Sequence record: MH992122.1
Strand: one strand, 5' to 3'
Length of the DNA stretch: 64,000 nucleotides
DNA from: Escherichia phage OLB35
Position 1 is the first letter of the stretch. Every line of letters begins with the position of its first letter. A program made the translations under genes and the position numbers. Of the stretch, positions 25,652-44,290 are shown in pieces. Under the pieces are notes generated by a model. That model ran no database searches and was not told the origin of the DNA. It saw nothing but the letters and a program-made list of their open reading frames with translations.

Positions 25652-25679
25652 TTTGTTCTCCGTTCGTTTTGGTAGGACT

Positions 25680-25708
25680 ACTATAACATAATCCTACCAA
25701 GATGTAAA
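25680..25708 (-). promoter_or_regulatory. Early promoter / PeSL-like element
   Basis: Minus-strand GTTTACA-N17-TATAGT; -10 embedded between arms GGTAGGA/TCCTACC. Confidence 0.5.
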
Positions 25709-25945
25709 CTACCGATTGTGTTTTAAATGTTGATAAAGTTCTTCAACTTGTTTAGGGTCCAAAACAATTAGGTCATTTTCTTGACGAAGATAAATCCATC
25801 CCTTATCACCAGGTCCATTTTTACAAAACATCACCGTCGTCATATCATCATCTTCAGCGCTTTCAGGTAAAAGTTCAAGTACACCGTCTTCAGATTTTCC
25901 AGTATAATCGTAAAGCATAATATCCTCACATAATCTCGTTAACAT
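25709..25945 (-). CDS. Hypothetical protein
   Basis: 78-aa ORF. Confidence 0.45.
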   Translation of the reverse strand: MLTRLCEDIMLYDYTGKSEDGVLELLPESAEDDDMTTVMFCKNGPGDKGWIYLRQENDLIVLDPKQVEELYQHLKHNR

Positions 25946-35757: not shown

Positions 35758-35785
35758 AATATTCTCCTCATGTTTTAATAGGACT

Positions 35786-35814
35786 ACTATAACATAGTCC
35801 TATAATTGTGTAAA
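35786..35814 (-). promoter_or_regulatory. Early promoter / PeSL element
   Basis: Minus-strand TTTACA-N17-TATAGT; -10 between inverted arms ATAGGACTA/TAGTCCTAT. Confidence 0.55.
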
Positions 35815-35827
35815 CAGTTTTGCGAAA

Positions 35828-36784
35828 TTATTTGAAAGGTTTTACCATATGGAAATTTTGTTTAAAACGTTTTACATAATCGTCATGTCCTAAGCTTTGG
35901 TACATACTTACAACTTTGCTGTAGTTTTCCCAAGCGTATTCACGGAACCAGCCTGACGTGATTGAAGTACAGACTTTTTCTAATGCCATCATAAAACTAT
36001 CACGTGGATGGATTTCAAAGTTATTAGGAATCTGAGAACGTTCTAACGCTAGTACACATGATTCTTCGTATACGCCGGCTAATTTGACCATTTCTGGTAA
36101 TGATTCGAACTTCTCGCGTGAGGTCATGACTTCAGAACCATCTTTCATATAAAATGTATACGCTGGACGGTCTGTTAGTGCAATGGCTTCGTGAATAGTA
36201 TCATGGTCATACGTATAGATGTCATCTTTAAAGAATGCGCTTTTAGAAGTGTCAAGAACTGGGTGAGCATAGTTCAAGGTTTCTTTCTGGCGTTTCAGCA
36301 TAATTTCAGTAAGTTCATCGTTCAGTGTAACACCTTTACCACGAAGATACTGAATATGGTTCATAGTCTTTAAAAAGAATGGATTATTTTTCTTGAAACG
36401 ATGAGACATCTTAATTGCAAGACACATCTCAGGAGTTGCCCAGTAAAACCCGTTCAAACGGTCTTTAGTCAAATTTTTCTTGGCGTATTTTAAAAGGTCA
36501 TAAGAAGACGTGAAATCTTCAGGAGTGAGTTCACCGACTAATTCACGGACATTAGTGATTGCCGGAACAATATATGCTTCAAAATGAGTTTCGCGTCCAT
36601 TATGGAAGCATTTGAAAACTTGGACATCAGGGTTATCTTGGTGAACATATACACCCATCATTTGATTTTTGAATACATTCCAAGAACCTTGGTCCGCAAT
36701 AAAGTCCCAATCACTATTTTTGATAGCGCTAGAATCAATAAGGCCGTGATAGTGAAGTGCACGAGAACCAATAACTAACATCAT
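35828..36784 (-). CDS. Hypothetical protein (318 aa), candidate enzyme
   Basis: Large ORF (MMLVIGSRALHYHG...) with no motif I can assign. Confidence 0.55.
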   Translation of the reverse strand: MMLVIGSRALHYHGLIDSSAIKNSDWDFIADQGSWNVFKNQMMGVYVHQDNPDVQVFKCFHNGRETHFEAYIVPAITNVRELVGELTPEDFTSSYDLLKYAKKNLTKDRLNGFYWATPEMCLAIKMSHRFKKNNPFFLKTMNHIQYLRGKGVTLNDELTEIMLKRQKETLNYAHPVLDTSKSAFFKDDIYTYDHDTIHEAIALTDRPAYTFYMKDGSEVMTSREKFESLPEMVKLAGVYEESCVLALERSQIPNNFEIHPRDSFMMALEKVCTSITSGWFREYAWENYSKVVSMYQSLGHDDYVKRFKQNFHMVKPFK

Positions 36785-36812: not shown

Positions 36813-37064
36813 TTAAATTTCGCGACATGCGATATTATATTCATCCCAGAGGTCGTCATGTGAAGCCTCTACCAATGGAACGATTGTGCCGTTTATGTCT
36901 TCATTATAAGGGCAAATTGTACAGTGCGCATCTTCGAATCGGATGCCTTTGTGTTCAGATTTTTTATAACGCATATCGAATATCTTTGCAAACTTTTCAC
37001 GAGTAATAGTTTTAGCAACTACTTCTGTTCCTATACTTTCGTAATAAACCATTGTTGTCTCCAT
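36813..37064 (-). CDS. Cys/His-rich small protein
   Basis: 83 aa; HCTICPYNEDINGT...CREI. Confidence 0.45.
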   Translation of the reverse strand: METTMVYYESIGTEVVAKTITREKFAKIFDMRYKKSEHKGIRFEDAHCTICPYNEDINGTIVPLVEASHDDLWDEYNIACREI

Positions 37065-37080
37065 TTAATTTGATAGGACT

Positions 37081-37109
37081 ACTATAACATAGCCCTATCT
37101 TGTTGTAAA
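37081..37109 (-). promoter_or_regulatory. Early promoter / PeSL element
   Basis: Minus-strand TTTACA-N17-TATAGT with flanking GATAGGACT/AGCCCTATC arms. Confidence 0.5.
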
Positions 37110-37114
37110 CTGTT

Positions 37115-37312
37115 TTAGCAAGAATAACTAGATGATACCCAGCCTTGAACAGTAATACTATTATTTGATAACGAGATTGCGTCCTGGAGATTCAGACCTG
37201 CATTATCTTCAATCCACAATGTAACTTCTTCACGCTCTTCGGTTGCAATCTGGAACAGGTTTTCTAGAGCAGCTACTGCCGTACGTACAGCACAATCTAA
37301 TTCACGAGACAT
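37115..37312 (-). CDS. Small protein, WVSSSxxC-tail family, member 1
   Basis: 65 aa ending ...VQGWVSSSYSC. Confidence 0.5.
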   Translation of the reverse strand: MSRELDCAVRTAVAALENLFQIATEEREEVTLWIEDNAGLNLQDAISLSNNSITVQGWVSSSYSC

Positions 37313-37321
37313 ATGATTTCC

Positions 37322-37595
37322 TTAACAAGTGTGAGAAGATGCAACCCAACCACCATCTTCAAGGCTCAAGTTGTAGTCGTATTGGTAAACGTCGGCCCAT
37401 TCAGCATAACCGTTTTTTTGTACAACGTTCAAGATCGGCTTTAAGATGTCCTGGTGAATGATAGGTTCCACCCATGCCATAAGCTGGATACAAGTTGAAT
37501 GTTGTGTTTTGTTTATTAGCAATTTCTTTGGCAGCCTCAATAGCTGCATAGATTTTTGCTACAGCTTCAGCCAGTTCGGTTTGTTCTTTAGACAT
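37322..37595 (-). pseudogene. WVSSSxxC-tail family member 2, frameshifted
   Basis: N-terminal frame (37595-37401: MSKEQTELAEAVAKIYAAIEAAKE...YGMGGTYHSPG) and C-terminal frame (to 37322: ...NGYAEWADVYQYDYNLSLEDGGWVASSHTC) each match the intact paralogue. Confidence 0.5.
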
Positions 37596-37604
37596 AATGA
37601 TTCC

Positions 37605-37910
37605 TTAGCACAACGCAGAAGACGAAACCCAAGCACCTTCAGTAATAACGTAACCATTACCTTCACGCTTAACATCGCCACCATTATTTTCAATTTCATC
37701 TTTCATCCACTGGGATACGATTTCACCCTTAGGATAATAAGTACGACCGCTACCATAATCACCTACAGAAAATGATACTGCATATTGGTCTGCGATCTTT
37801 GTTGCTTCTTCTTCGATACGTTCAGCTTGATTCAGAAGTTTATAAATTGCATCTGAAGCGGATTTGGCATCATTAAACTCTGGTACTTTAATTTCAATAA
37901 TCTTACTCAT
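37605..37910 (-). CDS. WVSSSxxC-tail family member 3 (intact)
   Basis: 101 aa: MSKIIEIKVPEF...GDYGSGRTYYPKG...GNGYVITEGAWVSSSALC. Confidence 0.55.
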   Translation of the reverse strand: MSKIIEIKVPEFNDAKSASDAIYKLLNQAERIEEEATKIADQYAVSFSVGDYGSGRTYYPKGEIVSQWMKDEIENNGGDVKREGNGYVITEGAWVSSSALC

Positions 37911-37935
37911 TTTCTACATTCCTTAATAAAGTTTT

Positions 37936-38321
37936 CGATTGTTTCATTTTCACGTTTAGCTAGGAGTTCATTATAACTAATCATTTGAGAAGCGTAAACA
38001 GCATAAATTCAGTTAAGGCTTTTGCATCTTATTTCCTTAACGAATTCCATAGCTTCTTCATATTCATACTTTTTAACAGCTTCGATTGTTTCATTTTCAC
38101 GTTTAGCTAGGAGTTCATTATAACTAATCATTTGAGAAGCGTAAACAACGCCGTCAATAAGAAATCCAACTAATCCAAAGGCAAATCCCATGCCAATACT
38201 CATAATAAAAATTAGAATGTTCTCACCAAGAGAAGGCCAGCATAAATTCAGTTAAGGCTTTTGCATCTTATTTCCTTAACGAATTCCATAGCTTCTTCAT
38301 ATTCATACTTTTTAACAGCTT
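37936..38321. repeat. Segmental duplication, units A-B-A-x-B (A ~65 bp, B ~83 bp)
   Basis: A at 37936-38000 and 38083-38147; B at 38001-38083 and 38239-38321, near-identical; unit A carries GTTTAC-N17-TATAAT on the minus strand. Confidence 0.8.
38009..38203 (-). CDS. Chimeric small membrane protein sharing its C-terminus with the next gene
   Basis: 64 aa; last 22 aa (VKKYEYEEAMEFVKEIRCKSLN) identical to the end of 38248-38640 because of repeat unit B. Confidence 0.4.
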   Translation of the reverse strand: MSIGMGFAFGLVGFLIDGVVYASQMISYNELLAKRENETIEAVKKYEYEEAMEFVKEIRCKSLN

Positions 38322-38640
38322 CATCATACTGAGCTTGGGCTTTTGCGCACTGAACTTTCCATTCTCTTAATCGGGCTCTGTGATGACGTCCTTGGTACCA
38401 ATATCCCATCCAGTTAATAGGCATTAATAAAAACGGTACAATAAGTGGTGCGACGAACATTAATGAAAATGCTGCATCAGACGATATAACTTCACTAGAA
38501 TCTAAAACGGCTCCTATAATCATAAAGATTAAAAATGCTAAAGCTAAAATAGGGCCAAATAGTACTTCATTTGGGATTAATTTACGCTTGTATTCATACG
38601 CCCAGGGCTTACTTGGCATGTATAGGGTTGGCTTTGACAT
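38248..38640 (-). CDS. Membrane protein
   Basis: ~130 aa from the internal Met (MSKPTLYMPSKPWAY...); two TM helices. Confidence 0.5.
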   Translation of the reverse strand: MSKPTLYMPSKPWAYEYKRKLIPNEVLFGPILALAFLIFMIIGAVLDSSEVISSDAAFSLMFVAPLIVPFLLMPINWMGYWYQGRHHRARLREWKVQCAKAQAQYDEAVKKYEYEEAMEFVKEIRCKSLN

Positions 38641-39232
38641 ATTCTCTACATTCCATAATAAATTGCTCAAGGATTAAATTGTTAGTGAAATTAGGACTAA
38701 CAACCATAGTTTCATAAAGCGCATCAATAGCACTTAAAGCATCAACTCTCTTAAGCAAAGGCTTGCCTTCATACATAGTTTCAGAATCGACGATTAACGT
38801 AAAGTAGTATTTTTTATTATCGACTAGAACTTCTGTATCGATATAAAACATATTAGTCCTCAGAAGCTTATCTCTAAAACCATAATAATCTTCAGAGCGT
38901 TCGCTGATATATTCCCATTCAGTGTTTAAACAACAAACAGACCACGTAGGAGCAACGAAATCAGTGAATCTAATATCATGGTCTGCAACTAGTTTAGCAA
39001 TAGCTCCGATATCATGAATCATAATACCTGGGGCTAATAAAGATTTTCTGCTATGGCTAGCCGTTTTCTCGGTGGTCTCATAAGAAGACGACCAGTACCA
39101 TTTACGTCCGGTTGCAACATATCGTAATGAATCAACTAAAGACGTAGGTGGATTTACCTTATCTCGGAACTCTTCGAACATTGAGTCAATATCATTATTT
39201 TGGTTTCGCATGTTAACTCCTTTATTATCCAA
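38609..39232 (-). CDS. Hypothetical protein
   Basis: 207-aa ORF; start may be at 39211. Confidence 0.5.
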   Translation of the reverse strand: MDNKGVNMRNQNNDIDSMFEEFRDKVNPPTSLVDSLRYVATGRKWYWSSSYETTEKTASHSRKSLLAPGIMIHDIGAIAKLVADHDIRFTDFVAPTWSVCCLNTEWEYISERSEDYYGFRDKLLRTNMFYIDTEVLVDNKKYYFTLIVDSETMYEGKPLLKRVDALSAIDALYETMVVSPNFTNNLILEQFIMECREYVKANPIHAK

Positions 39233-42249: not shown

Positions 42250-42326
<77 letters not shown>

Positions 42327-42329
42327 AAT

Positions 42330-42404
42330 TGGTGACCCTGGCTGGTTTCGATCCAGCTACCTATCAGTTATGAGCTGACAGCTCTCCCATTGAGCTACAG
42401 GGCC
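42330..42404 (-). tRNA. tRNA with anticodon CAU (Met or Ile2-type)
   Basis: Acceptor GGCCCTG/CAGGGTC, D-arm GCTC-AATGGGA-GAGC, anticodon loop CTCATAA, T-arm GCTGG-ATCGAAA-CCAGC, encoded CCA; C4-G69/C5-G68 fit an Ile2-type tRNA. Confidence 0.8.
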
Positions 42405-43839: not shown

Positions 43840-44265
43840 TTTATTTCTCCTTTACTCATTTTGTTTTGATAGGACTACTATAACATATCCATATAGGCTT
43901 GTATATCTTTATTTCAAATATATTGCGTATTTTTTATAGCCACCAGGCTCGTGTCGAAGACCTTTATCATTCGCAAAACGTTGAATGTTATTGAACTGGT
44001 TTTCATCGAATGATGATTTAATCTTAGCTTTAGATCCTTTAGTTATAGAAATAAACATCTCGGAAGACCCTTTCTTAAAGTCTGATGCAGATACTTCAAC
44101 ACCGTTCTTAGCAAGTGACCTCAGAATTGCATCTGCGTACACTTCATATGTGTCGAATATGAAAAAGTTTTGTTAGCTACCAAGCGTGATATATTGAGAA
44201 TCAGTTCAGCGCGTTTCATTTTATTTCTCCATTTACTCATTTTGTTTTGATAGGACTATTATAAC
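43819..44265. repeat. Direct repeat pair (~65 bp each) carrying a PeSL promoter plus the first codons of a gene
   Basis: gaatcagttcagcgcgtttcattttatttctcc...gataggact...ataacat at 43819-43885 and 44198-44265; the second copy starts a 32-codon ORF sharing MKRAELI with 43654-43839. Confidence 0.75.
43909..44142 (-). CDS. Hypothetical basic protein
   Basis: 77-aa ORF. Confidence 0.45.
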   Translation of the reverse strand: MYADAILRSLAKNGVEVSASDFKKGSSEMFISITKGSKAKIKSSFDENQFNNIQRFANDKGLRHEPGGYKKYAIYLK

Positions 44266-44286
44266 ATAGTCCTATCGGCATGTAAA
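44258..44286 (-). promoter_or_regulatory. Early promoter / PeSL element with perfect 10-bp inverted repeat around the -10
   Basis: Minus-strand TTTACA-N17-TATAAT; GATAGGACTA ... TAGTCCTATC arms flank the -10. Confidence 0.6.
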
Positions 44287-44290
44287 CTAC

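Follow-up and report, generated by a model that had tools for sequence, protein, structure and literature searches.

A tandem array of small phage proteins with a common C-terminal tail and its linkage to a putative nucleotidyltransferase gene

Three consecutive small genes on the minus strand of Escherichia phage OLB35 end in variants of one motif, GxWV(S/A)SSxxC, and the locus raises the question of what this common C-terminus is for. We analysed a stretch of 64,000 nucleotides (nt) from this phage (sequence record MH992122.1), here called the window, which belongs to a Mosigvirus, an RB69-like T4-type phage. Our analysis showed that the array (37115-37910) is the upstream half of a conserved two-component phage module. 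The downstream half is a gene for a protein of 318 amino acids (aa) with the domains DUF7277 and DUF7275 (35828..36784, minus strand), the equivalent of RB69ORF134c and a putative nucleotidyltransferase.

The array and its common tail

The array consists of M3, M2 and M1, all on the minus strand. M3 (37605..37910), the equivalent of RB69ORF138c/139c and unbroken here, was identified by its open reading frame (ORF) call and by a match to phrog_899 (E=1.3e-22). It encodes 101 aa, is 99% identical to P0001 of Shigella phage phi25-307, has an N-terminal helix and a YGSGRTYYP motif, and ends in ...TEGAWVSSSALC (...EGAWVSSSALC). M2 (37322..37595), the equivalent of RB69ORF137c, is split by a +1 frameshift into two overlapping frames, one of 64 aa (37401-37595) whose last residues before the stop codon are ...CTKKRLC, and one of 75 aa (37322-37549) ending in ...EDGGWVASSHTC (...DGGWVASSHTC). 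When a run of seven A residues (A7) is replaced by A6, M2 becomes a protein of 90 aa with YGMGGTYH and the tail GWVASSHTC, which matches phrog_899 at E=3.2e-18. M1 (37115..37312), the equivalent of RB69ORF136c, is a reduced family member of 65 aa that matches phrog_4882 (E=1.1e-36); its N-terminal helix is kept, its YGxGG segment is absent, and its C-terminus is ...TVQGWVSSSYSC (...VQGWVSSSYSC). The genes are spaced by 9 nt, and every stop codon merges into the AAGGA of the following gene.

These three ORFs and their ends were the subject of the original prediction, and the ORF listing and direct reading reproduced it in every feature and coordinate. That they are tandem paralogues, one of them frameshifted, had also been proposed, and this was upheld. 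A BLASTP comparison of M2 with M3 gave E=4e-6, and E=1e-3 when both tails were cut off; hhalign of the M1 subfamily against the main family gave E=4e-7 over helix and tail, and 0.016 in an unchanged register when the tail was removed, so that in both cases the similarity extends beyond the tail, contrary to the refuting outcome named with the original prediction. The order M3-M2-M1 is retained in relatives whose enzyme is 67-74% identical. Judged by their sequences, M1, M2 and M3 are true paralogues and the tandem paralogy is old. Within the 64-kb window, the tail is confined to M1, M2 and M3 among 740 stop-to-stop ORFs of at least 35 aa. Together with the BLASTP and hhalign comparisons and the serine codon use given below, this places the pattern far beyond chance.

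The wider family was searched by full HMMER with a 12-sequence alignment, which found 596 cluster representatives at E<=1e-3, and the 145 best matches were examined for motifs. The tail, W-x-[S/A/P]-S-[S/T]-x-x-C, is present in 143 of the 145, of which 135 end at the Cys and 8 extend one residue beyond it. None of these 143 deviates at W(-7), S(-4) or C(0), and each has Ser or Thr at position -3; the strictness of the C-terminal Cys, claimed from the window alone, extends to these representatives. A YGMGG(TYYP) loop is found in 114 of the 145. The family members have a median length of 86 aa and a median isoelectric point of 4.5, most have a single Cys, and they occur almost exclusively in phages. 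All three window ORFs belong to the family and bear the tail. In loci taken from IMG/VR, 40 array members match the family through the tail alone and have nothing else detectable in common with it, and by these alignments it is the tail that defines the family.

The codons of the tail were compared in 178 distinct tails from fetched loci. Ser(-4) is encoded by TCN or AGY codons in 138 and 40 cases, and Ser(-3) in 126 and 52; the use of both serine codon classes indicates that selection acts on the protein and not on the DNA. The Cys codon is TGC or TGT, and each of the three stop codons is used. We also considered whether the tail might arise from a DNA-level overlap with the Shine-Dalgarno sequence of the next gene, and rejected this, as the Shine-Dalgarno sequence starts in the stop codon, M1 has the tail with no gene directly after it, and the codons and stops of the 178 tails vary freely.

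An AlphaFold2 (AF2) model of M3, the 101-aa member for which structure prediction had been proposed, reached a predicted local distance difference test score (pLDDT) of 90.7. In this model W-V-S forms a beta-strand, SSAL a helical turn, the tail has a pLDDT of about 87, and the YGxGxTYY strand and the W-V-S strand share one sheet. Most of the conserved positions are Gly, Ser/Thr, Tyr or Trp (Y52, G53, G55, T57, Y58, W68, W94, S97 and S98). Searches for known families gave two sub-threshold Pfam matches for M3 and nothing relevant in NCBIfam or the PDB sequences. No consistent fused domain was found in the long family members, whose N-terminal extensions look like mis-called starts. A relation to the capsid-targeted internal proteins of T4 was rejected as well: the tripeptides in ...KVPE of M3 and ...LAE of M2, which recall the (L/I)-x-E cleavage site at the end of a capsid-targeting sequence, are not conserved in the N-termini of the wider family and appear to be coincidental.

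The linked DUF7277/DUF7275 gene

In the window the enzyme gene lies two genes downstream of M1 on the same minus strand. On the contigs of two unrelated metagenomic phages with distant family members, a DUF7277/DUF7275 neighbour (307-349 aa) is likewise found one or two genes downstream, and in one metagenomic phage three tandem paralogues (89, 86 and 112 aa) precede it. Of 80 enzyme loci from IMG/VR, 73 contain one to five ORFs that carry the tail or match the family hidden Markov model, all on the enzyme strand and all but one upstream, and none of 11,271 opposite-strand ORFs in the enzyme loci has the tail. Five of the seven loci scored negative have degenerate tails directly upstream (...WVQSSC, ...WQSSNQSC, ...WAGSSC, ...WESSEKCW); of the remaining two, locus L028 has none and carries tRNA genes instead, and L081 includes too little upstream DNA.

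The linkage was also examined in the reverse direction, with loci recruited through a degenerate DNA pattern for YGMGGTY. The enzyme gene was found downstream and on the same strand in 32 of 32 loci that have a family ORF and enough downstream DNA; 10 further loci end within 1.2 kb. In no assessable locus were small genes found without the enzyme. The linkage spans very distant phages, with enzyme identities as low as about 38% and jumbo phages among them, and the genes around the module are wholly different there. No third conserved module gene was found among 38 non-redundant loci.

Homologues of the enzyme were found in 732 of 50,697 deposited phage genomes, mostly of Gram-negative hosts; the check for tail-bearing partners covers the loci described here. 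The carriers include RB69-like, JS98-like, Aeromonas, Acinetobacter, Pseudomonas and jumbo phages, and some therapeutic-candidate coliphages. In Acinetobacter phage PhaR5 the neighbour of the homologue bears a tail ending in ...WYNSSESC. A bacterial origin was rejected, as only 7 of 185,579 species genomes have the enzyme gene, all on contigs of metagenome-assembled genomes, and in 5 of the 7 an ORF with the tail lies upstream.

The 318-aa protein matches DUF7275 and DUF7277 in Pfam (E=8e-79 and 2.9e-27; 264.3 and 95.6 bits, the cut-off being 27). In an alignment of 35 diverse sequences, G6, S7, D25 and D27 never vary, and 34 of the 35 have an acidic residue at position 69, within a hydrophobic h-h-E-x-E-h-h strand. 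These residues fit the Pol-beta pattern of hG[GS], [DE]h[DE]h and a third carboxylate, with a spacing of 11-17 between GS and DxD against the classical 9-13. Beyond these N-terminal motifs the protein is predicted to be helical and is rich in invariant His, Asp, Glu, Lys and Arg; invariant or nearly so are K125, H128, K139, T140, R165, H194, D195, H198, E240, E241, E248, R249, K270, G278 and R281. At the level of motifs, the protein is likely to be a nucleotidyltransferase of the Pol-beta type (GS...DxD...hEh). The PhaR5 homologue was called a 'putative nucleotidyltransferase' by an independent GenBank annotator, all other members being 'hypothetical'.

Profile comparisons of the enzyme were weak or non-significant. 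The best per-member Pfam matches were DUF6036 ('nucleotidyltransferase of unknown function', E=0.013) and DUF4269 (E=0.11), both weak. The hhalign comparisons with E. coli Cca (E=0.1-0.17) and AadA (E=0.26) were non-significant, although both alignments fall on the catalytic DxD. The only PDB match was the KEN region of RNase L at E=0.6, outside its catalytic motif. The invariant H128, H194-D195, H198 and E240/E241 fit loosely the H...HD...D pattern of HD phosphohydrolases, and a search for such a domain gave no HD match in Pfam, nor did hhalign align the enzyme with the HD region of Cca or of GlnD. Two known classes were rejected for the enzyme. Membership of the MNT-HEPN toxin-antitoxin group is not consistent with the absence of a HEPN match in Pfam at E<=10 and with the consensus RYLKNSPH (R-x6-H), whose His is not invariant, the window protein having Phe in its place. 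For a MenT/AbiEii protein, no match to PF08843 (DUF1814) was found at E<=10 in the 35 members.

Possible roles of the tail

The near-obligate linkage to a downstream DUF7277/DUF7275 gene gives indirect support to the tail as a modification or processing signal, which was among the roles first suggested for it. We tentatively favour the reading, plausible though short of likely, that the tail is the site which the enzyme recognises or modifies and that the array is its substrate set. The 318-aa protein, as a nucleotidyltransferase of the Pol-beta type, would recognise the tail of the small proteins and might place a nucleotidyl or nucleotide-derived group on Ser(-4)/Ser(-3) or on the terminal Cys. 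One enzyme would then have the tandem paralogues as its alternative substrates, and their fast-evolving bodies could carry different downstream activities. We favour this relation since the tail alone is common to all array members, those with unrelated bodies included, and since two hydroxyls and a thiol beside a free carboxylate are the kind of groups that get modified. It also agrees with the distribution, where no small gene occurs without the enzyme in assessable loci and the enzyme sometimes occurs without an adjacent small gene, and with the presence of several diverged tagged genes beside one enzyme, which resembles multi-precursor modification clusters. The small proteins (38-64% identity) diverge faster than the enzyme (64-74%), an asymmetry that would be substrate-like.

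A further step, which we regard as unlikely, is that the module is a new post-translational modification system of phages, in which the enzyme would turn the C-terminal Trp-x-Ser-Ser-Ser-x-x-Cys tag into a new chemical structure. One candidate is a nucleotide, or a cofactor derived from one, that is linked to Ser and works together with the terminal thiol; another is a ring, formed if the activated Ser were eliminated and the Cys then added across, though we know of no dehydration chemistry for this type of enzyme. The modified small proteins would act in host take-over or counter-defence. As a speculation, an anti-defence role is plausible from the location of the array and its early-gene context.

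Several points weigh against the enzyme-substrate relation. Contact of the tail with the active site is conjectural, and the nucleotidyltransferase assignment is a matter of motifs only. For the enzyme, PDB profile searches with full-length and N-domain alignments were empty for nucleotidyltransferases, and nothing significant came from PADLOC, from Pfam searches of each member at E<=10 or from hhalign comparisons with Cca, GlnD and AadA; its single-sequence AF2 model had a pLDDT of 36 and was not used. The predicted structure of M3 has the tail within its fold, so that it would be no free floppy tag and a less typical modification site. No tail-bearing neighbour was found in Gordonia phage ClubL (L174), Streptomyces phage Muntaha (L175) or Brevibacillus phage Sundance (L176), whose distant enzyme homologues retain the N-terminal GS...DxD. 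From these three phages of Gram-positive hosts, the enzyme can presumably work on something else. The gene order, finally, fits a pair of regulator and enzyme or of antitoxin and toxin equally well.

The regulator or antitoxin model is the main rival, possible though somewhat unlikely. It holds that the enzyme hits another target, such as host tRNA or other RNA as the MenT/AbiEii toxins do, and that the tail proteins are inhibitors, pseudo-substrates or specificity subunits whose Ser/Cys tail is inserted into the active site. The small genes precede the enzyme gene on one strand, an arrangement also seen in toxin-antitoxin pairs, and there is a precedent in the 68-aa antitoxin MenA1, which blocks the active sites of the nucleotidyltransferase MenT1 (PMC10435456). 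The many invariant basic residues of the enzyme would suit acidic partners, and tRNA or RNA-repair genes are often near the module (tRNAs at 42250-42404 in the window, a tRNA cluster in ClubL, a polynucleotide kinase in Muntaha). Individual small genes are also repeatedly knocked out in isolates with the enzyme intact, and the structured tail of the AF2 model would somewhat favour this model. However, as described above, no member has a DUF1814/AbiEii or HEPN match, up to five diverged antitoxins per enzyme would be unusual, and an enzyme without an adjacent small gene, as in L028 and the Gram-positive phages, is unexpected if neutralisation is needed. The array members that retain the tail alone suit a tag better than a fitted inhibitor surface.

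The remaining two roles, ligand binding and a purely structural one, are less likely. As ligand binders, the small proteins would use the YGMGGTYY loop, the aromatic residues and the Ser-rich C-terminal turn as a pocket for a small molecule or nucleotide, and would be carriers or sponges that bind either what the adjacent enzyme makes or host immune signals. The dominance of conserved Gly, Ser/Thr, Tyr and Trp positions is in line with such a pocket, as are the common sheet of the YGxGxTYY and W-V-S strands in the predicted model and the occurrence of the module elsewhere in accessory regions beside anti-defence-type genes (L008, a Gad2-domain gene; L010, NAPRTase and PRPP-synthetase genes). 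We consider it decidedly unlikely all the same, as members of the M1 type and tail-only members stay in the arrays without the Gly-rich loop, the strong acidity is unfavourable for nucleotide binding, and no similarity to known sponge folds was found for the small proteins.

Very improbable, in our estimate, is a tail that serves folding, metal binding or oligomerisation (a metal or disulfide shared through the terminal Cys) without direct contact with the enzyme, so that adjacency would reflect co-function or joint cassette mobility. The tail is predicted to be structured, the single Cys of most members would permit intermolecular chemistry, and recombination cassettes of the promoter/stem-loop (PeSL) type flank parts of the module. 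But the linkage holds across very distant phages (about 38% enzyme identity, jumbo phages) despite different surroundings, and the cassette that separates M1 from the enzyme gene would favour uncoupling, not co-transfer.

The frameshift of M2 lies in a homopolymer of seven A residues (37413..37419, minus strand; T7 on the plus strand), where the coding strand reads ACA AAA AAA CGG and the loss of one A restores the frame. Relatives have A6 and some have A5; in Shf125875, p000v and Mizar the run is A6 and one coding sequence of 273 nt and 90 aa is annotated. In 130 of 130 phage records that hold the segment, 81 query bases pair with 80, and in none is the identity 100%. The A7 allele with its 64-aa product (...CTKKRLC) was found on at least five sequence backgrounds, OLB35 and four variants from independent assemblies, and a different truncation (...CTKTAMLNG...) fitting A5 in mar005P1-type phages, the A5 allele being present on at least two backgrounds. 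From these alleles, the run behaves as a recurrent indel hotspot that switches the gene off, and M2 of OLB35 is probably a non-functional, frameshifted copy; each such case may be a real null allele or a sequencing error. The comparison with Shf125875 gave no evidence of a pervasive homopolymer error across the window: most indels form compensated pairs within diverged patches, and the insertion in the M2 run stands by itself. That the split is a programmed frameshift or transcriptional-slippage site yielding two products is hardly credible: the position in an A7 run and the recurrence of A7 and A5 would suit it, but the large majority of relatives have A6 and an uninterrupted 90-aa ORF that needs no shift, repair requires a +1/-2 shift instead of the classical -1, and the pattern is that of a hypermutable homopolymer or of sequencing error, so that by this comparison the shift is an ordinary homopolymer indel rather than a recoding signal.

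In the RB69 reference (NC_004928.1; L173, 1935-2241) it is the M3 orthologue that is broken. One T inserted after GTGG splits it into ORF138c and ORF139c, and the tail has a Ser-to-Pro change too, which makes it a pseudogene in the laboratory type strain. Single array members are therefore evidently dispensable in the laboratory.

Genomic surroundings and comparison with known systems

A 1-kb piece around the array has matches in 171 phage records and shares 99.8% identity with Shigella phage Shf125875. From the annotation of Shf125875, the region lies between e/nudE and the tRNA genes, the position that the original prediction had given it, and ARAGORN located tRNA-Arg and tRNA-Met at 42250-42404. 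M3, M2, M1, an 83-aa ORF and the enzyme gene follow each other on one strand with short gaps. The 83-aa ORF (36813..37064, minus strand), which stands between array and enzyme gene, is the equivalent of RB69ORF135c and matches phrog_3723; it is lineage-specific and no conserved part of the module.

Upstream of M3 there is a promoter-like sequence of the sigma-70/T4-early type, TTTACG-17-TATAAT (37970..37998, minus strand), identified by consensus match only, and no late promoter TATAAATA was found near the array or enzyme genes. From these matches to the early consensus, the module is probably expressed early. A cassette of 38 nt occurs in four copies on the minus strand (25672-25709, 35778-35815, 37073-37110 and 44250-44287; none expected by chance), each with an early-promoter-like GTTTAC-17-TATAGT over the hairpin AUAGGRCUAUGUUAUAGUAGUCCUAU (folding free energies of -16 and -12.8 kcal/mol). 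The copy at 37073..37110 lies between M1 and ORF135c, and its GTTTACA-17-TATAGT overlaps an 11-bp hairpin (-16 kcal/mol, z -5.2); that at 35778..35815 lies directly downstream of the enzyme gene, and these two bracket the pair of ORF135c and enzyme gene. The cassettes match the published PeSL cassettes, which mediate modular shuffling in T4-type phages (PMC2839356, PMC4122927).

Two perfect direct repeats were found upstream of M3, one of 67 nt (37934-38000 = 38081-38147) that carries the promoter-like TTTACG-17-TATAAT and one of 85 nt (37999-38083 = 38238-38322). They break the e.3 homologue, a single 119-aa ORF in Shf125875, into ORFs of 25 and 64 aa, and may stem from a recent duplication or deletion, or from an error of assembly. 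Because of the repeats, the ORFs 38248-38670 and 38009-38203 have the same 23 terminal residues (...AVKKYEYEEAMEFVKEIRCKSLN). The e.4-like ORF of 140 aa has a hydrophobic central segment, which suggests a membrane protein.

In other phages the neighbours of the module differ. A Gad2-domain gene is beside it in L008 (10139-10339), and a NAPRTase and PRPP-synthetase-like pair and a DUF2828/DUF7788 gene in L010 (1-2493 and 8033-9622); these are accessory genes of the counter-defence or RNA-biology type. The enzyme gene of ClubL has a tRNA cluster nearby, and that of Muntaha a polynucleotide kinase gene. In Sundance, a 93-aa gene upstream of the enzyme ends in acidic EEEEYSSSYY repeats.

As first noted from the window, the family has no T4 name. 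Literature searches found nothing on DUF7275, DUF7277, the PHROG identifiers, the RB69 ORF names or the tail motif, and nothing relevant on a nucleotidyltransferase with a C-terminal cysteine in phages; neither the motif nor its linkage to the enzyme seems to have been described before. Should the enzyme prove to modify the tail, protein nucleotidylylation would gain a new acceptor motif, and perhaps a new chemistry, and two DUFs and three PHROGs would have a function. Should the small proteins instead regulate an RNA-directed enzyme, the module would be a new phage-borne relative of the nucleotidyltransferase toxin systems. An invariant terminal Cys after invariant Ser residues, tied to one enzyme gene, is a clear and cheap experimental target, and a search for the tail pattern beside a DUF7275 neighbour is a reliable way to recover these short genes, which annotation often misses.

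The window proteins clearly belong to phrog_899, phrog_4882, phrog_2141 and DUF7277/DUF7275, computational groupings labelled 'unknown function', and neither the PHROG nor the Pfam entries record the tail motif or the linkage of small protein and enzyme. With MenT/AbiEii the enzyme has in common a length of about 300 aa, N-terminal Pol-beta motifs, a C-terminal helical domain and a small gene ahead. It differs in the absence of DUF1814 noted above and in having up to five small genes per enzyme. The MenA antitoxins belong to unrelated families, whereas the small proteins here have one C-terminal motif in common, and MenT/AbiEii are chromosomal toxin-antitoxin loci, whereas the present module is found in lytic phages.

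In the pairs CitX-CitD and MdcG-MdcC, a transferase loads a Ser of a small acidic carrier with a prosthetic group derived from a nucleotide. Going by their descriptions, the module would resemble them in having a small acidic protein with an essential Ser and a dedicated transferase encoded nearby, but the carrier Ser of CitD and MdcC is internal, while the motif here is at the extreme C-terminus with an invariant Cys and Trp. Clusters for ribosomally synthesised and post-translationally modified peptides (RiPPs) have tandem precursor genes beside one modifying enzyme, and in lanthipeptides rings are formed between Ser/Thr and Cys. By analogy, tandem diverged genes with one short invariant segment beside a single enzyme gene, and a lanthionine-like Ser-x-x-Cys spacing, might suggest such a cluster. 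RiPP precursors, however, are leader-core peptides, and here folded proteins of 65-110 aa have their conserved part at the C-terminus. A RiPP or lanthipeptide cluster was rejected, as the module has two conserved components only and no LanB, LanM, LanKC, protease or exporter genes.

Enzymes with the Pol-beta fold are known to modify hydroxyls of proteins, as in GlnD-PII, GlnE-glutamine synthetase and MntA-HepT (PMC7641770). In the favoured reading the likeness to these systems would be that a GS...DxD enzyme puts a nucleoside monophosphate on a hydroxyl of a partner encoded next to it, as with MntA and HepT, where the genes are adjacent and the partner is modified. The acceptors of GlnD, GlnE and MntA are Tyr residues in an internal loop, whereas the candidates here are Ser-Ser and the terminal Cys. 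No sequence or profile similarity to these systems was detected here, and the HEPN motif of HepT is absent. The present module further differs from them in that each enzyme has several paralogous partners, encoded almost only by phages.

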